The notes beneath the pieces are model-generated. The model saw only the letters and a program-made list of their open reading frames with translations. It was not told the DNA's origin and ran no database searches. From a virus (taxonomy: Duplodnaviria > Caudoviricetes), in IMG/VR virus record IMGVR_UViG_3300035208_002098, positions 96,001-160,000 of that record: a stretch of 64,000 bases of DNA. One strand, 5' to 3'. Made by a program: the position numbers and the translations under genes. Positions 5 to 53,100 of this stretch are shown in pieces. Position 1 is the first letter of the stretch. The number at the start of each line of letters is the position of its first letter.

Positions 5-76
5 AGTCGATAATCAGAATCGAACTGACATCCTCAGTTTGGTAAACTGACGCACTAACCGTTGTGCTATATCGAC
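5..76 (-). tRNA. tRNA-Gly(ACC)
   Basis: Cloverleaf: GTCGATA/TATCGAC acceptor, TCAGT-TTACCAA-ACTGA anticodon arm, U73. Confidence 0.85.
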
Positions 77-4253: not shown

Positions 4254-4392
4254 GAACAGGTTTGTCTTTTTGCGTTCTATTGCTCTACCAACTGAGCTAT
4301 ACCCCCAATATTAATATTTGTGGGGGCAATGGGATTCGAACCACATGACCCATAGATTTACCTAGCTTTTTATTTGCTGAATCAAACCTTTA
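4254..4392 (-). ncRNA. YrlA-like Y RNA (circularly permuted tRNA module)
   Basis: Order is T-arm, acceptor stem closed by a loop (TGCCCCCA..TGGGGGTA), then D-arm; ends pair AGGTTTG/CAAACCT; TTCAGCAA motif. Confidence 0.75.
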
Positions 4393-4547: not shown

Positions 4548-4562
4548 ATGTTTATTTTTTTG

Positions 4563-4647
4563 CAGACCCCGTAAGACTCGAACTTACAAACCAATTAAAG
4601 GCATTAGATTCAAAATCTAACGTGTTTACCAATTCCACCAGAGGTCT
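4563..4647 (-). tRNA. tRNA with Gln anticodon (TTG) on a Leu-like long-V-arm body
   Basis: D-arm GGTGGAATTGGTAAACAC, TTAGA-TTTTGAA-TCTAA, G73. Confidence 0.8.
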
Positions 4648-12841: not shown

Positions 12842-12925
12842 TGATGGTAATGGGATTCGAACCAACATACGTCATGACCTTCCGATTAAATGTCGGGTGC
12901 TCTAACCAGACTGAGCTATACCATC
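12842..12925 (-). tRNA. atypical tRNA-Lys(TTT)
   Basis: Loop CATTTAA (A33), extended variable region. Confidence 0.6.
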
Positions 12926-13062
12926 ATAAGTTTTTTAGTTGGTCAGGGCCAACATAGAACCGTATTTACCAAACTAAAAGCCCCACATGTGTCGGATGTG
13001 AACCGGTGGTTTATATTCTTGATTATCGAGCATTTAAAACAACCTAAAACTTTCGCTACGTG

Positions 13063-13189
13063 TGGTGATAATAGGATTTGAACCTATGCCATTATAAAGT
13101 TAATAGAAATCTCAATTAACCATTCAATTTCATCTTTATAACCTAACCTAACTATCGTTAGTGCTCTCACCGGACTGAGCTATACCATC
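13063..13189 (-). ncRNA. tRNA-scaffold RNA with ~50-nt variable-arm domain
   Basis: Normal D and T arms, no 7-nt anticodon loop, TTATAAAG/CTTTATAA stem. Confidence 0.55.
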
Positions 13190-13203
13190 ATTTTTGCCCT
13201 TAA

Positions 13204-13371
13204 GTTGAACACATGAGAGTTCAGTTATTGCCTTGGGACTTTTGGCTATTTAATACTAAATAAATACCCTCATGGACTTAACTACATTACCACTACTCTC
13301 TTTATCTCCTACTTATTTTTAGCTCTTTACCTTTGTAGTAGACTCAAGCCTTATTAAAGTGTACGTTCAAC
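13204..13371 (-). ncRNA. putative structured RNA
   Basis: Ends pair GTTGAAC/GTTCAAC; non-coding, inside the RNA array. Confidence 0.35.
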
Positions 13372-13381
13372 GAACAACCTG

Positions 13382-13476
13382 TGATACTAGATGGACTCGA
13401 ACCAACAACCCCTTGACCTACTTTACACATCATGTATTTCGTTGCAAGTCCTCTACCAATTAAGAGATATAGTACC
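13382..13476 (-). ncRNA. tRNA-scaffold RNA with expanded anticodon arm
   Basis: GGTACTA/TAGTATC acceptor; ~29 nt between CTTG and CAAG. Confidence 0.6.
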
Positions 13477-13518
13477 AAATTAATTTTTTATCTATTCAAT
13501 ATTCCATAATGTCTAAAG

Positions 13519-13590
13519 TGGTGATGGGTGGAATTGAACCACCGACACATGGATTTTCAGTCCATTGCTCTACCCCTGAGCTACATCACC
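13519..13590 (-). tRNA. tRNA-Phe(GAA)
   Basis: Canonical cloverleaf. Confidence 0.93.
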
Positions 13591-13672
13591 ATATTTACCT
13601 CGGTTACAAACCGAGGGTTTTTTCCACGACCAATTATATTATTAATTAACCTTAGAATTTTATTACATCCAG

Positions 13673-13834
13673 TAGAAATGATTGGATTCGAACCAATGAC
13701 CTTCTCACTTATGAGGTGAGTCGTTCTGATTAATATTTCTGACTTCCCTAGAAGTGTTTTACTCTATTAACCCCAAGTTGTGAATCCCATCCCTATTTTA
13801 CTAGAGCCAACTTAGCCACTCAACGTACATTTCT
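13673..13834 (-). tRNA. tRNA(CAT) with ~90-nt D-loop insertion
   Basis: AGAAATG/CATTTCT, D-stem CGTT/AACG enclosing the insert, CTCAC-CTCATAA-GTGAG, perfect T-arm. Confidence 0.75.
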
Positions 13835-13836
13835 AG

Positions 13837-13912
13837 TGGCGATTTACTGAATCGAACAGCAACGGGTATATCTACCAAAGGATTCATGAGGTCCTCGTTT
13901 CCACATATCGCC
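13837..13912 (-). tRNA. atypical tRNA(CAT), truncated D-arm
   Basis: GGCGAT/ATCGCC acceptor, loop CTCATGA. Confidence 0.5.
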
Positions 13913-14010
13913 AAATTTAACAATCTCTTACTTAAAGACAATCCACGAATTCCTAAACTCGCTTCTAAGCCCCTACTACTTCTTAAATTGTTTAATATTA
14001 AAAAATTAAT

Positions 14011-14136
14011 AACAATATTGATTTTTTTACGTGCTCTACCAACTGAGCTATATTATCAATTACTTGATAATAGGTGGGTTCGAACCACCGACCACGAGCT
14101 TAACAGGCTGATTTTAAATTGCTGAAACAATATTTT
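14011..14136 (-). ncRNA. YrlA-like Y RNA with Asn anticodon-loop mimic
   Basis: AATATTG-TTTCAGCAA..AGC-CTGTTAA-GCT, T-arm, loop-closed acceptor TATTATCAA/TTGATAATA, D-arm, CAATATT-GT. Confidence 0.75.
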
Positions 14137-14238
14137 ATATTAATTTAGTTCTATATTGAGGACTCGAACCCACATGTACTCCACTAATAGTAATATTAGT
14201 CAGTATTATAGTACCGTGAGATTTTACCCTCACAGCTT

Positions 14239-14378
14239 AATTAATTAAATGATAGGACTCGAACCTATACTAGACGGGAAACCGGGTTGGGACCTATTAG
14301 GCTGTTCTGATTACCGTGTACATACTATTTTAACCCTCGACCAGCGTGTATTCCAATTCCACCACACTTTAATTAATT
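14239..14378 (-). ncRNA. Leu-like tRNA scaffold with large anticodon-arm insert
   Basis: D-arm GGTGGAATTGGAATACAC, T-arm ATAGG-TTCGAGT-CCTAT, extended acceptor. Confidence 0.55.
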
Positions 14379-14391
14379 GTTTTTTTTTGAT

Positions 14392-14674
14392 TACAGATTC
14401 ATGACTAGTAGTAGACGAAACTACTGTATGTCTTTACGGCTGCCGTAAAACGTGCTTTCGGGCACAAGAGTCTATCCTTGCTAACCAACCCATTGTTTAC
14501 TAAACCCATGTGGTAAAACGAATATTTCTATTCTCCCACTGATTATTCAACCACATCGCCACCGGGCACTACATGCTTTTCTTTTACCGTACTAACATGA
14601 GTATATCGCTATCATATTTCTATGCTTCGCTACCTTAGAACCATTATTTTTTTATATTGCAGTAATGAATCTTT
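14392..14674 (-). ncRNA. long (~280 nt) Y-like RNA
   Basis: AGATTCAT-TACTGCAA ... ATGAATCT-GT terminal module; internal GAAA tetraloop hairpins. Confidence 0.55.
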
Positions 14675-14684
14675 AAATCATTTT

Positions 14685-14841
14685 AAGTAATTATTACGAG
14701 GTGAAGAAGCATATTCTCTTTGAACTATTACCATTCGAGAACCACACGGGTAGCGTGGTGACCAATATTAAACATCATCAGACATTTATTTATATATAGT
14801 CTATTCCTTAATTCTTTCTAAAGCGTGTACCTTAATTACTT
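14685..14841 (-). ncRNA. putative structured RNA
   Basis: Terminal AAGTAATTA/TAATTACTT; internal ACCACG/TGTGGT hairpin. Confidence 0.35.
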
Positions 14842-14850
14842 ATTTCTTTT

Positions 14851-14943
14851 AATTAATCACCAATGGATACTTCTTCTCGCTGCGGTCTTGTCTAAACAAA
14901 ACTAGTGGATACTGAAGATATTACACCATGGTATTGATTAATT
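14851..14943 (-). ncRNA. putative structured RNA
   Basis: Terminal AATTAATCA/TGATTAATT; first unit after boxA. Confidence 0.35.
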
Positions 14944-14980
14944 ATATTTTTATTCTGTCAATGAACTTTGTATTTTTAAT

Positions 14981-15025
14981 TACACTGCAAAGATAAATAT
15001 TATATTTGACATGTGCAAGTAAAAT
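14981..15025 (-). promoter_or_regulatory. Bacteroidota-type promoter of the ncRNA array
   Basis: CTTG...TATCTTTGCAG upstream of boxA; no leader or terminator seen. Confidence 0.65.
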
Positions 15026-17144: not shown

Positions 17145-17276
17145 ATCTATAAATATTTAATACAAATATACAAATAATATTTTAATAAACAAAATAAATA
17201 CCATAAAAAAGCTCATTAGAGCTCATATTAAATCTTTTATGAGCTCTAATAGGTGAGAAAATGAGCTTAATTTGTG

Positions 17277-17351
17277 TGGAAGTCATGGGTATCGAACCCA
17301 CCTCACTCTGATTGCAAATCAAAATCGCCTTGCCTTGGTTCATGCACCCCC
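17277..17351 (-). tRNA. tRNA-Cys(GCA), divergent
   Basis: Loop TTGCAA, T-arm GTGGG-TTCGATA-CCCAT. Confidence 0.75.
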
Positions 17352-17354
17352 AGT

Positions 17355-17449
17355 TACAGGTTAGTTATTTTTTGACGGATTTGAACCGTCTAGCATTTGA
17401 GTTTGAATCAATTGTTTTAACCATTTAGTTTTTGCTGAAACTAACCTTT
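17355..17449 (-). ncRNA. Y-like RNA carrying a Leu(CAA) anticodon arm and T-arm
   Basis: AGGTTAGT-TTCAGCAA..TTGA-TTCAAAC-TCAA..GACGG-TTCAAAT-CCGTC..ACTAACCT-GT. Confidence 0.7.
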
Positions 17450-26921: not shown

Positions 26922-27215
26922 TTAATTATCTGTTTTATAATTGAATATATCAGACACTGCATTACATGTGTTTTCCATTGACCAATCTATCATAAGAATA
27001 ACTCTATCATCATCATCCTCTGGTCCGTAAACTTCAACACACCCACCATTACCGGAAGAGTTACCTTCTTCTCTATCCATTTGTATAAATGGTTCTAAGA
27101 TTTCTAATATTTCTTTTTCTGTTTTACCATCATCAACAACATAAATCATTTCTGAACTATTTGTTATCACAGATGATACACTATGTATATTTAATACAAA
27201 TTTTCTTTTTTCCAT
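26922..27215 (-). CDS. DVITNSS-motif protein (paralog 2)
   Basis: HSVSSVITNSSEMIY. Confidence 0.75.
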   Translation of the reverse strand: MEKRKFVLNIHSVSSVITNSSEMIYVVDDGKTEKEILEILEPFIQMDREEGNSSGNGGCVEVYGPEDDDDRVILMIDWSMENTCNAVSDIFNYKTDN

Positions 27216-27227
27216 AACTATTATTTT

Positions 27228-27710
27228 TTAACCCATATGTATTCTATGTGAATTTTTTTCAAAAAGACTTTCGATAGCATCAAATAGTTCGTAAGGTATA
27301 CTATTATCACCAGTACCGATAATAACAACCATACCTAAAACACCTTCTTTGATTACATCAAAGTTTCTACGAACCCATTCTTTATCGGCTTTGTCGTATA
27401 AATCCCAATCTTTAAAGTCATTATATTCCGGTTATTCTGAATCAGTATTAATCCAATAAGGTAAATCCCAACCAGTTAAAGTATCAACCCACTCATCTAT
27501 ATTAGTTTCATTTATAACTTCAACTTTACAAATAGATTCTAATGAATCAATTGATGTGTTATTACTTTTATTATAAACTTCTAAATAATTTAATAAAAGT
27601 TCCTCAATAAATGAGATATTTTTATCTGTATTTCCAACAAATAATTCAGTTGAAGAATTAGTTATAACATCAACAAATGAATGCGGTTTTATTAATACAA
27701 TTTTTTTCAT
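27228..27710 (-). pseudogene. DVITNSS-motif protein (paralog 1) with in-frame TAA at 27432-27434
   Basis: HSFVDVITNSSTELF; the same frame continues PEYNDF...DNSIPYELFDAIE...HMG*. Confidence 0.65.
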
Positions 27711-52039: not shown

Positions 52040-52083
52040 AGATAATACAATTAATTTAATTTACCAAATATTTTATTTTTTAG

Positions 52084-52168
52084 TACACCCGGAGGGATTC
52101 GAACCCCCAAGAACATAAAGTCACCTCTTTAGAAGAGAGGGACGCTTCCAATTACGTGCTACGGATGC
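52084..52168 (-). tRNA. tRNA-Arg(TCT), long variable arm
   Basis: CCTCT-CTTCTAA-AGAGG. Confidence 0.82.
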
Positions 52169-53010: not shown

Positions 53011-53015
53011 ATTTG

Positions 53016-53100
53016 TCGTCTGGGTGAGATTTGAACTCACGTTGAGAATTAATCTCACAGCTTATCAGGCTGTTTTCTGCCACCACTCGAATACCAGACA
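53016..53100 (-). tRNA. tRNA-Ile(GAT), long variable arm
   Basis: ACAGC-CTGATAA-GCTGT, V-arm GAGA..TCTC. Confidence 0.82.

Follow-up and report, generated by a model that had tools for sequence, protein, structure and literature searches.

A jumbo phage block of tRNA-derived and stem-closed RNAs behind a promoter and a boxA-like element

Extent, units and head of the block

The block runs along the minus strand from 12842 to 15025 of the window (the whole 64,000-nt stretch of phage DNA that was analysed), covers ~2.2 kb, and is a real non-coding RNA operon composed of known but unexplained kinds of RNA. As the first-pass annotation had proposed, it is free of credible ORFs, the longest reading 46 aa on the sense (minus) strand and 79 aa on the opposite strand. 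At 35.5%, its G+C content exceeds that of both flanking genes (23-26%), and AU-rich UUAAUUAA spacers, 8-fold enriched, lie between the short units. We counted about 16 units, tRNA-Phe and ~15 tRNA-derived or stem-closed RNAs (Table 1). Alongside the canonical tRNA-Phe and a defective tRNA of Lys type stand four tRNA scaffolds with sizeable expansions inside them, a pair of CAU tRNA-like RNAs, a pair of handle RNAs, of which one is a circularly permuted tRNA, several stem-closed RNAs, and at least one decayed stretch. The single ordinary tRNA of the first-pass annotation was thereby confirmed, whereas its total of 11 units, about ten of them odd, was too low; most units are non-canonical and tRNA-derived, as it had stated. 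Folding z-scores are mostly modest (-0.5 to -1.8). The phage occurs in the samples ERZ27247350 and SRR18595299. Two independent assemblies carry the array with 99.99-100% identity, which excludes an assembly artefact; identical-protein look-ups returned no other copies than these 99.99-100% identical ones, so that there is no microdiversity to use.

Table 1. Features of the block, from the promoter to the distal end (window positions).
Feature	Position	Strand	Evidence or description
Promoter	14988..15018	-	TTG-N20-TATCTTTG; phage's common Bacteroidota-type class
boxA-like element	14954..14968	-	AAGTTCATTGACAGA; core GTTCATTGACA at 14966-14956
Stem-closed RNA, ~90 nt	14852..14942	-	Terminal helix and inner hairpin; z -1.7
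Stem-closed multi-hairpin RNA, ~160 nt	14684..14842	-	14-pair terminal stem around 3-4 hairpins; z -2.74
Probable handle RNA, ~280 nt, 265-nt payload	14393..14672	-	Handle scan: AGAUUCA-UU-ACUGCAA ... UGAAUCU-GU
Leu-type (class II D-arm) scaffold, ~75-nt domain replacing anticodon and variable arms	14245..14371	-	D-arm UGGUGGAAUUGGAAUACAC
Two hairpins and degenerate T-loop-like motif; maybe decayed tRNA	14145..14236	-	z -2.6; T-stem of 3 pairs only
Handle RNA with circularly permuted tRNA	14012..14134	-	Fold; handle scan; Rfam YrlA 30.4 bits (match 14003-14117)
Long irregular hairpin	13919..13992	-	z -1.8
CAU tRNA-like RNA without D-stem, hairpin variable arm	13838..13912	-	Fold is a cloverleaf minus D-arm; acceptor 6/7, T-arm 5/5
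tRNA(CAU), ~94-nt two-hairpin D-loop expansion after GG	13673..13834	-	Acceptor 7/7, T-arm 5/5
Two hairpins, the second a free-standing Thr(UGU)-like anticodon stem-loop	13597..13657	-	z -3.46
Canonical tRNA-Phe(GAA)	13518..13590	-	ARAGORN and Rfam, 75.1 bits
tRNA scaffold, 29-nt structured insert as anticodon loop, non-decoding	13382..13476	-	Rfam tRNA 32.7 bits; acceptor stem 7/7
Stem-closed RNA, ~165 nt, weakly supported	13207..13371	-	10-pair terminal helix; z -0.5
tRNA scaffold: GAUA-capped anticodon stem, ~60-nt variable-arm helix	13063..13189	-	Rfam tRNA 39.6 bits, 64-nt insert; fold
Poorly structured stretch with T-loop remnant GGUUCACAUCC	12930..13060	-	z +1.3; 3 stem pairs only
Lys(UUU)-like tRNA: A33, T-stem mismatch, unpaired 14-nt variable loop	12842..12925	-	ARAGORN and Rfam, 49.7 bits

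The promoter motif class occurs genome-wide in 78 minus-strand and 15 plus-strand copies, against 10-22 (both strands) in shuffled sequence, and ten paralogous promoter copies align. Some 20-30 nt downstream of the block promoter comes the boxA-like motif AAGTTCATTGACA, and this promoter-boxA head is paralogous to the heads of other non-coding RNA clusters of the genome. Indeed, the boxA-like motif has six minus-strand copies in the genome (~0.5 expected), all of which head or sit inside non-coding RNA clusters, including a CRISPR-like array. In rRNA operons and CRISPR arrays, rrn boxA is the site of NusB/NusE antitermination. In the 16S-23S spacer of 4/4 Flavobacteriia rRNA-operon contigs examined (Flavobacterium, Polaribacter, and Winogradskyella), an identical motif is placed after the spacer tRNAs and ahead of the 23S gene, and the analysis points to Flavobacteriia as the host class of this jumbo phage. 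The phage element therefore combines the sequence of a host-class rRNA operon with a position early in an untranslated transcript, as rrn-type boxA does; from its position in the rRNA operons, the motif would be the Nus-binding boxA of Flavobacteriia.

The promoter and boxA that the first-pass annotation had assigned to the block were both recovered, one of a common class and the other shared with Flavobacteriia rRNA operons. Its description of a separate, non-attenuated unit without leader or terminator also agrees with our findings, given that the only ATG frame past the promoter has 2 codons and that no sense-strand terminator-like site was detected within the block. On the opposite strand, the Thr(UGU)-like hairpin doubles as a terminator (plus-strand terminator-like site at 13598-13616). 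The stretch that separates the block from the AAA ATPase gene downstream has no promoter of the common class. Since there is no terminator, the block probably reads into this gene, and would thus be the leader-like part of a mixed operon; the proposed RNA operon stands as a separate non-coding unit, but probably not as a closed one.

RNAs built on a tRNA body

Tested against the Rfam tRNA model (RF00005), only 13518-13590 has, in addition to a passing score, four arms and a 7-nt anticodon loop bearing U33. The Lys-like unit (12842-12925) passes the score and carries A33, while 13063-13189, 13382-13476, and 13673-13740 pass only by skipping 64 nt, 29 nt, and the D-arm, respectively; 13838-13912 receives no score from the model. 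Unit 13673-13834, in which Rfam matches 13673-13740 alone, has a 4-bp D-stem (CGUU/AACG) and the anticodon loop CUCAUAA. The insert-bearing scaffolds anticipated at 13063, 13382, and 14239 were found at 13063-13189, 13382-13476, and 14245-14371, and the anticipated CAT tRNAs correspond to the two CAU tRNA-like RNAs at 13673-13834 and 13838-13912. The Leu-type scaffold at 14245-14371 (T-arm 5/5 pairs, acceptor stem 6/7) has genomic paralogues at about 51700, 51462, and 32149. Furthermore, A-C directly follows each of the five units, insert-bearing or odd tRNA-like, whose acceptor stem is clear, and any base plus C follows every ARAGORN tRNA for which the 3' end was examined. Since the acceptor/T-arm stack of the phage's real tRNAs and their discriminator-C74 context are retained in most units, we propose that RNase P, RNase Z, and the CCA-adding enzyme could cut the precursor into ~15 stable RNAs.

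Expanded scaffolds are not restricted to the block. At least 10 RNAs of the genome carry unrelated inserts on a common scaffold (7-bp acceptor stem, D-arm, T-arm, and discriminator plus C74). Among IMG/VR expanded Leu-type scaffolds, the acceptor pairs 7/7 in 77/101 matches, against 0 in a slid control, so that comparable RNAs number at least 77; 48 different acceptor sequences occur among the IMG/VR expanded scaffolds. One Leu(UAA) subfamily has a conserved, covarying insert of 49 nt and has lost the anticodon in two members. No insert motif common to the Leu-type scaffolds of the phage and low-G+C IMG/VR scaffolds was found. Stable RNAs from the tRNA regions of T4 and T5 have been known for decades and, to our knowledge, have no assigned function, species 1 and 2 RNAs of T4 being comparable to those of T5. 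In the T5 record (NC_005859), RNA1 (144 nt) and RNA2 (125 nt) are annotated as 'tRNA-like stable RNA with unknown functions', together with RNAI, RNAIII, RNAIV, and RNA2H in the same tRNA region. The T5-type build, i.e., an acceptor/D/T scaffold with an expanded middle within a phage tRNA array, is that of the expanded scaffolds of the block.

In this context, the earlier suggestion of tRNA scaffolds as a possible means to process and stabilise cargo RNAs is plausible: one scaffold carries unrelated inserts both in this genome and in IMG/VR, and T5 RNA1 and RNA2 are annotated as stable. On the other hand, the inserts have no match to a known RNA family (Rfam), blastn of the block against the genome gave same-strand repeats only, with zero reverse-complement matches that could mark antisense targets, and the stem mismatches seen in some units, including the acceptor stems of 13063-13189, 13838-13912, and 14245-14371, suggest decay.

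The genome encodes an Rnl1-type ligase, a CCA-adding enzyme, and Tpt1, all of which would suit an alternative in which the inserts are protein-spliced introns. After cutting by an unspecified endonuclease, the ligase would reseal the halves and Tpt1 would clear the 2'-phosphate, giving ordinary decoding tRNAs, and the permuted unit would mature via a circular intermediate. The tRNA(CAU) of 13673-13834 would be perfect if most of its D-loop were removed, the permuted unit at 14012-14134 holds every part of tRNA-Asn, and 'enigmatic' tRNA introns have been reported in Lak megaphages (Devoto et al., 2019, PMC6784885), beyond which nothing directly relevant was found in the literature on long-variable-arm or interrupted phage tRNAs. 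However, neither an EndA family endonuclease nor RtcB was detected in the genome searches, there is no group I intron signal, and excision plausibly yields a canonical tRNA for 13673-13834 only. For 13063-13189, 13382-13476, and 14245-14371, no single excision was seen to restore a 7-nt anticodon loop with U33, and the ARAGORN intron calls are low-grade, with odd intron positions; moreover, the anticodon is missing entirely from two members of the Leu subfamily in IMG/VR. We consider splicing into decoding tRNAs improbable.

A further alternative is that the block consists mostly of tRNA genes decayed or rearranged by recombination and homing-endonuclease traffic, lying passively in the long 5' leader of the AAA ATPase gene, with only tRNA-Phe, and perhaps the handle RNAs, functional. 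Unit 13063-13189 is indeed a chimera, its 5' half being 93.5% identical to the 5' half of the Lys-like unit (12842-12925) and its 3' half different (an internal repeat). Stem mismatches and T-loop remnants recur (T-stem and A33 of the Lys-like unit, T-arm of 14145-14236, and the unstructured 12930-13060, which is probably decayed tRNA DNA and not an RNA unit), and the neighbouring arrays are dense with endonuclease genes of the GIY-YIG and HNH types. Relatives lack an array here, as contigs with the closest relatives of the AAA ATPase show, and orthologues of the array or the odd units were found neither in GenBank phages (blastn) nor among IMG/VR relatives of both flanking proteins, in an exact-pattern search from the CAU tRNA, in the CCA-enzyme neighbourhoods, or in whole-record searches of four related phage records. 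Consequently, the covariation check proposed in the first-pass annotation provides no unit of the block with comparative support of its own. Against general decay, most stems are intact (acceptor 7/7, T 5/5, D 4/4), the inserts fold into long helices, the G+C content clearly exceeds the value of the flanking genes, the promoter-boxA head is dedicated and paralogous to those of other non-coding RNA clusters, and RNAs built in this way are stable in T5 and reappear, with covariation, in many phages. Hence passive decay of the block as a whole seems unlikely to us, though it deserves serious weight.

Among the stem-closed units, 3/200 shuffles fold as well as 14684-14842, and no homologue of 14852-14942 was found; the end-paired RNAs proposed earlier correspond to these two and to 13207-13371, the last being weakly supported. 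That the 280-nt and 160-nt stem-closed units have no family match, and that the genome has a HEARO-like RNA below the Rfam cut-off, would fit one or more larger unrecognised RNAs, such as a ribozyme or an RNA guiding the IscB-like system of the phage, in which case the unit boundaries drawn here would be wrong. Yet an Rfam search of the block at E<=10 returned only tRNA and a weak YrlA match, with no group I intron, tmRNA, RNase P, ROOL/GOLLD, or ribozyme family; CRISPR-repeat copies are absent from the block, though present in other odd-RNA clusters; and the AU-rich spacers set short units apart. Larger RNAs of this kind are accordingly a poor candidate.

Handle RNAs and the DUF2828 protein

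The handle combines a terminal stem of 7-9 bp with a gap of 2 nt and (A/U)CAGCAA, and G(U/G) follows the 3' strand; 14012-14134 has every one of these elements. Mounted on its handle come, in this order, the anticodon hairpin, which is Asn(GUU)-like, the T-arm, an acceptor stem closed by a loop, and the D-arm; the hairpin and T-arm are 89-92% identical to phage tRNA-Asn genes. The design recurs in IMG/VR, and there is a paralogue in the genome at 4256-4389. In 14393-14672, CUGCAA replaces the CAGCAA core (ACUGCAA), and its fold has no exceptional stability (z -0.9). A 13-nt identity between this unit and a 23S rRNA segment, CUAAGGUAGCGAA, was dropped as compatible with chance.

The handle scan found seven copies in the genome, all on the minus strand within tRNA arrays, and 6/7 handle stem positions show Watson-Crick pairs changed on both sides across these copies. 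In phage Felix O1, four handle copies lie directly 3' of ORF42. Across IMG/VR, the handle pattern has a 7/7 closing stem in 74/119 matches (~9 expected), with a GU tail in 45/74, and a DUF2828 homologue is present at 45/118 such loci (38%), compared with 7/100 and 9/80 in comparison sets (7-11%). The DUF2828+DUF7788 gene of our phage (L083:8471-9904; PF11443 and PF25043, E 1e-37 to 9e-51) encodes a protein 39.5% identical to Felix O1 ORF42 (E 6e-99) and lies 57 kb from the block, not adjacent to it. The handle RNAs of the block belong to a widespread uncatalogued family linked to DUF2828 proteins, and they probably bind the DUF2828 protein of the phage as Y-RNA-like partners.

We know of no defined RNA partners of phage Ro-like proteins. 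In 711 phage records, members of the DUF2828 family carry a Ro-like or RNA-binding annotation; a 'Ro-like' member is Bas63 gp130 (bioRxiv 10.1101/2024.10.10.617714), and a literature search on DUF2828 gave nothing directly relevant apart from the PhageMaP paper. YrlA-type Y RNAs are associated with Ro60/Rsr (RF02553; Chen et al., 2014, PMC4201824). Unit 14012-14134 has the permuted order of YrlA (T-arm, loop-closed acceptor-like stem, D-arm), but it scores 30.4 bits, against a gathering score of 69, and the match rests on the tRNA-like module, the Ro-binding stem columns being mostly non-canonical. A TROVE (Ro60/Rsr) gene had no match in the 248 kb searched (record ~70% complete), and a search for a VWA_2 partner was negative. 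Thus, the Y-like RNAs of the first-pass annotation are present, but not as YrlA; they are better described as a stem-CAGCAA handle family tied to DUF2828.

Interpretation and comparison with known systems

We favor, at slightly better than even odds (about 0.55), the reading that the block is a transcribed and processed non-coding operon of a jumbo phage infecting Flavobacteriia, made of non-decoding RNAs. A host-type promoter would initiate transcription, and the copy of the host rrn boxA would recruit Nus antitermination factors, through which the ~2.2 kb of untranslated RNA could escape premature termination before reading on into the AAA ATPase gene. Of the processed products, tRNA-Phe would be the sole ordinary decoder. 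The others would comprise (a) the two stem-CAGCAA handle RNAs, as probable partners of the DUF2828 protein, (b) tRNA-shaped RNAs whose anticodon, variable arm, or D-loop is replaced or expanded, presumably non-decoding tRNA mimics of the T5 RNA1/RNA2 kind, and (c) some decaying remnants. Group (b) could serve as decoys or substrates in a tRNA cleavage/repair contest, the least certain step.

A broader and rather doubtful extension is that the tRNA body, often of leucine type, is a general natural chassis of phages, and the operon a battery of modules and isolated tRNA parts. In this extension, the acceptor/T-arm end would provide for cutting, CCA addition, and stability, and the anticodon, variable arm, or D-loop position would carry interchangeable functional modules; the free Thr-like anticodon hairpin and the sealed permuted tRNA would be the isolated parts; and, together with the DUF2828 protein, Rnl1 ligase, and Tpt1, they might act in decoy and repair against host tRNA-cleaving defences.

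The block joins T4/T5-type stable RNAs and RNAs linked to a Ro-like protein behind one promoter and one host-derived antitermination signal; with both kinds behind a single promoter-boxA head, it would be a deliberate expression unit and not scattered debris. Both kinds are common in phages, with 77 perfect-acceptor Leu-type scaffolds and 74 closed handle-plus-permuted-tRNA RNAs in IMG/VR. The block is therefore a compact, testable construct set for the role of non-decoding tRNA mimics in infection, notably in the tRNA cleavage/repair contest.

Like the T5 stable RNAs, the block RNAs are sited among tRNA and homing-endonuclease genes. The Leu-type scaffold recalls T5 RNA1, whose insert of ~45 nt stands before a UAA loop, and several block units share with RNA2 a closed acceptor stem, T-arm, and ACA tail. 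The block RNAs differ in being gathered in a dedicated promoter-boxA unit, in their insert sequences, and in one D-loop expansion, and stability is documented for T5 only. In Lak megaphages, oversized tRNA genes with internal inserts likewise occur in large Bacteroidota phages, but are read as introns in decoding tRNAs, whereas most block inserts leave no usable anticodon.

With the YrlA/Ro60 system, the block shares a T-arm, loop-closed acceptor stem, and D-arm on a terminal stem (14012-14134), and the phage encodes a Ro-like protein. In contrast, there is no TROVE protein, the candidate partner being the distant DUF2828+DUF7788 protein, and the stem of 14012-14134 has a CAGCAA motif not described for YrlA and keeps an Asn-like anticodon hairpin. 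Dictyostelium class I RNAs (RF01414), which have a short terminal stem plus CCUUACAGCAA, gave no Rfam match in the block at E<=10; they resemble the handle RNAs in that a short stem pairs the two ends and its 5' strand leads into (A/U)CAGCAA, and differ in host kingdom and in that handle payloads here are tRNA parts. Finally, as with rrn boxA, the same 13-15-nt motif as in the host-class spacer stands just after the promoter of long untranslated transcripts, and also heads the CRISPR-like array of the phage; the difference is that, as a candidate Nus site, it is carried here by a phage and heads arrays of tRNAs and tRNA mimics.

Setting and transcription signals of the block

The IMG/VR virus record, of which the window spans bases 96001-160000, is 248 kb long and about 70% complete; in the window, G+C is near 28%, nearly all genes are carried by the minus strand, and homing-endonuclease genes are interspersed with 43 tRNA genes (ARAGORN). 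The genome further encodes a T4 Rnl1-type RNA ligase, a CCA-adding enzyme, Tpt1, and a tmRNA (L083:2504-2870, genome 162504-162870; tag peptide ending ...NLGSIA by ARAGORN). The block at window 12842-15025, a minus-strand array of non-coding RNAs upstream of an AAA ATPase gene, has a G+C of 35.5% against 23-26% in both flanking genes, and its description in the first-pass annotation as lacking credible ORFs was borne out: ORFs reach at most 46 aa on the sense strand and 79 aa on the opposite one. An ENA contig and a Logan contig, both from other samples, carry this DNA at 99.99-100% identity, so the block is not an assembly artefact; these copies hold no sequence variation to analyse.

The first ~70 nt of the block are repeated at about ten genome sites (blastn, block against genome), and the aligned repeats yield the promoter consensus TTG-N20-TATCTTTG(CA), which resembles the Bacteroidota -33/-7 form (TTG ... 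TAnnTTTG). Genome-wide, the pattern TTG-N18-22-TA[TC][CAT]TTTG had 78 minus-strand and 15 plus-strand copies (10-22 in shuffles, both strands summed), nearly all immediately 5' of gene starts. The copy heading the block fits this class well, in agreement with the promoter of its own proposed earlier. The absence of leader and terminator, also noted then, was upheld: the sole ATG frame 3' of the promoter spans two codons, so a leader peptide is absent, and a terminator scan of the block gave no terminator-like site on the sense strand. Because the pattern scan also detected no additional promoter-class copy between the block and the AAA ATPase gene (12815-11760), the transcript probably continues into this gene.

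The boxA-like motif GTTCATTGA[CA]A has six minus-strand copies, where about 0.5 would be expected for the whole genome, and all 6/6 head or fall within non-coding RNA clusters; the block and the cluster at genome 32.6 kb have paralogous promoter-boxA heads. In E. coli rrn operons, the spacer boxA is located between the spacer tRNAs and 23S. When 185,579 species genomes were scanned, AAGTTCATTGACAKA matched mostly Flavobacteriia and other Bacteroidota, many matches being on high-coverage contigs of ~5 kb, and in 4/4 such contigs examined the motif lay between the spacer tRNAs and the 23S rRNA start. Since the motif is shared with these rRNA-operon spacers, the earlier boxA call stands, and Flavobacteriia are very probably the host class; Nus factors would presumably bind the boxA of the block.

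Elsewhere in the genome, a CRISPR-like array (26971-27519, minus strand, L093; nine 36-nt repeats, period 66) is headed by a promoter and boxA-like motif (genome ~27628-27570). On its 3' side are a HEARO/omega-RNA-like match (57 bits, where the cut-off is 83) and an ORF whose motifs are PLMP-like and RuvC-I-like, a putative IscB- or Cas9-like gene. Orphan single CRISPR repeats occur in odd-RNA clusters (genome 32084, 52550, 52294, 53518).

Units of the block and their conservation

The units were read along the minus strand from the promoter, on the basis of ARAGORN, Rfam matches, and folding.

Table. Units of the block and associated features (window coordinates unless marked; z, folding z-score against shuffled sequence, negative being more stable)
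Feature	Position	Strand	Score or remark
Promoter	15018-14988	minus	good member of the genome's promoter class
Stem-closed RNA, ~90 nt	14852-14942	minus	z -1.7
RNA of 160 nt, long closing terminal stem	14684-14842	minus	z -2.7
280-nt RNA, handle-like closing stem	14393-14672	minus	
Leu-type tRNA scaffold	14245-14371	minus	
Two hairpins and degenerate T-loop	14145-14236	minus	
Handle RNA enclosing permuted tRNA	14012-14134	minus	
Hairpin	13919-13992	minus	
CAU tRNA-like RNA, hairpin variable arm, without D-stem	13838-13912	minus	
tRNA(CAU), ~94-nt D-loop, otherwise perfect	13673-13834	minus	
Two hairpins, one a free Thr(UGU)-like anticodon stem-loop	13597-13657	minus	z -3.5
tRNA-Phe	13518-13590	minus	75 bits
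tRNA scaffold, 29-nt anticodon loop	13382-13476	minus	
Stem-closed RNA, 165 nt, weakly supported	13207-13371	minus	z -0.5
tRNA scaffold, GAUA-capped anticodon stem, 60-nt variable-arm helix	13063-13189	minus	
Unstructured stretch with T-loop remnant	12930-13060	minus	z +1.3
Lys(UUU)-like tRNA: A33, T-stem mismatch, 14-nt variable loop	12842-12925	minus	
boxA-like copy	14966	minus	this block
boxA-like copies	5997, 21358	minus	tRNA arrays
boxA-like copies	genome 52911, 32571	minus	two other odd-RNA clusters
boxA-like copy	genome 27582	minus	CRISPR-like array
tRNA array positions, examples (arrays with two tRNA forms for many amino acids)	1954-2039, 2705-2791, 4562-4647, 53015-53100, 52083-52168		

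UUAAUUAA is eight-fold enriched in the block and stands at several unit borders. Directly 3' of five odd tRNA-like units we found A-C, and in every ARAGORN tRNA with a displayed 3' end, C is the second base after the acceptor stem, the first being any base. Five C of five are unlikely by chance at a C frequency near 0.15, which suggests that the odd units have the 3'-end context of real tRNAs. Read on the plus strand, the Thr-like anticodon hairpin (13598-13616) looks like a good intrinsic terminator, with GTTTTTT after its 8-bp stem, and could stop antisense transcription entering the array.

The evidence best supports a non-coding unit that is transcribed and protected by its boxA. Searches of GenBank phages, IMG/VR, and related phage records yielded no orthologue, either of the block or of any odd unit. 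At the position of the block, ordinary ORFs stand in the nearest AAA ATPase relatives (36-47% identity), which marks it as a lineage-specific insertion. Several units have mismatched stems, one is chimeric, joining two tRNA halves (blastn repeat), and one stretch is unstructured, so part of the block is probably decaying. An array that is as a whole a tRNA graveyard would display such defects; given the dedicated promoter-boxA head, we regard this reading as unlikely. The inserts matched no Rfam family and had no antisense match in the genome (blastn). A further reading, that the block contains one or more unrecognised larger RNAs, is improbable.

Handle RNAs and expanded tRNA scaffolds

Handle RNAs are closed by a terminal stem with a CAGCAA motif and belong to a family linked to DUF2828 (Ro60-like) proteins. 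A genome scan for a 7-bp stem, 0-2-nt gap, (T/A)C(A/T)GCAA, complementary strand, and terminal GT returned 8 matches on the minus strand. Seven have a 2-nt gap, and each of the seven falls within a tRNA array; in shuffled genomes, the total over both strands and every gap class was 1-7. The six distinct stems vary at 6/7 positions with Watson-Crick pairing throughout. Among 119 IMG/VR matches to CAGCAA...T-loop...D-arm, a 7/7 closing stem stood at a fixed offset in 74 (about 9 expected), with GT directly 3' in 45 of them, and 64 matches had a 7/7 loop-closed acceptor stem. DUF2828 homologues were present at 45/118 handle loci vs 7/100 and 9/80 in two other phage-locus sets, and the family occurs in 711 cultured phage records, under names including "Ro-like RNA binding protein". 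Felix O1 carries four handle RNAs directly 3' of ORF42, annotated as an RNA-binding protein, whose homologue in this phage (477 aa, 39.5% identity, E 6e-99; Pfam DUF2828 and DUF7788) is encoded 57 kb away from the block. Given these scan, stem, IMG/VR, and DUF2828 results, 14012-14134 is, by sequence, a solid member of a widespread handle-RNA family; it retains an Asn(GUU)-like anticodon hairpin and thus holds all tRNA parts in permuted order. The RNA at 14393-14672, where CUGCAA replaces CAGCAA, is a probable member.

An 82-nt stretch (window 17275-17355) immediately 3' of the handle RNA at 17356-17447 is 78% identical to L296:4461-4542, between two tRNA-Ser genes of a related phage (DUF2828 57% identical), and may be a conserved small RNA. 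Among IMG/VR loci with relatives of the AAA ATPase (L037, L047, L073, L076, L077, L080), several T4-like ones have no more than a few kb between the DUF2828 and AAA ATPase genes, which hints at an older linkage of this neighbourhood and the Ro-like system.

Expanded scaffolds, in which a tRNA acceptor/D/T body holds a large internal insert, number at least ten in this genome (95-204 nt), several sharing the Leu-type D-arm UGGUGGAAUUGGUA(U/G)ACAC. This D-arm followed by a T-loop 65-95 nt on had 101 IMG/VR matches, 77 with a perfect 7-bp acceptor stem vs 0 with the 3' strand slid 9 nt; they comprise 48 distinct acceptor sequences, are 112-140 nt long, and have discriminator A in 58. In one subfamily, a tRNA-Leu(UAA) holds an insert of ~49 nt, in which motifs are conserved and stems covary. 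Inserts of the block would, in another reading, belong to interrupted tRNAs spliced by proteins; we hold this improbable. Two subfamily members lack the anticodon entirely, so they cannot be simple intron-bearing tRNAs. The subfamily insert precedes the anticodon loop and carries CAGUG, GGCAGCAC, and CACCA (loci L113, L133, L138, L139, L146, L148, L161, L167, L129, L147). DUF2828 matches occur at six loci of the set, five (L139, L148, L113, L167, L151) in or near this subfamily.

Two more clusters of expanded scaffolds (127-204 nt) lie at genome 31500-32640 and 51450-53230 (L091, L092), one with a promoter-boxA head near-identical to that of the block; L092 has Rfam tRNA matches of 133 and 128 nt. 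Bacterial long variable arms are normally limited to Leu, Ser, and Tyr tRNAs. This phage has two tRNAs for many amino acids (Lys, Glu, Gln, Thr, Ile, Arg, Asn, Trp, Val, Cys): one is of ordinary class I form, the other is 82-90 nt long, has a variable arm folded as a hairpin, and often bears a D-arm of Leu/Ser type.

Proposed role and comparison with known systems

In the transcribed-unit account, tRNA-processing enzymes would cut the precursor into separate RNAs: a single decoding tRNA, two Y-like handle RNAs that would partner the DUF2828 protein, a set of T5-type non-decoding tRNA mimics, and some debris. The mimics may act as decoys or substrates in a contest over tRNA cleavage and repair, a role in keeping with the phage's genes for Rnl1, Tpt1, and the CCA-adding enzyme, and with the part in anti-defence that is reported for Bas63 gp130 (bioRxiv 10.1101/2024.10.10.617714).

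Both RNA kinds have precedents, in the T4/T5 stable RNAs and YrlA. The T5 reference record lists RNA1 (144 nt) and RNA2 (125 nt) as "tRNA-like stable RNA with unknown functions"; their folds show the build of the expanded scaffolds of the block, and RNA2 has an ACA tail, as do several block units. Furthermore, tRNAs with enigmatic introns were reported in Lak megaphages of Prevotella (PMC6784885). New here are the gathering of both RNA kinds in one dedicated promoter-boxA operon, an expansion located in the D-loop, and counts showing that both kinds are common in phage metagenomes.
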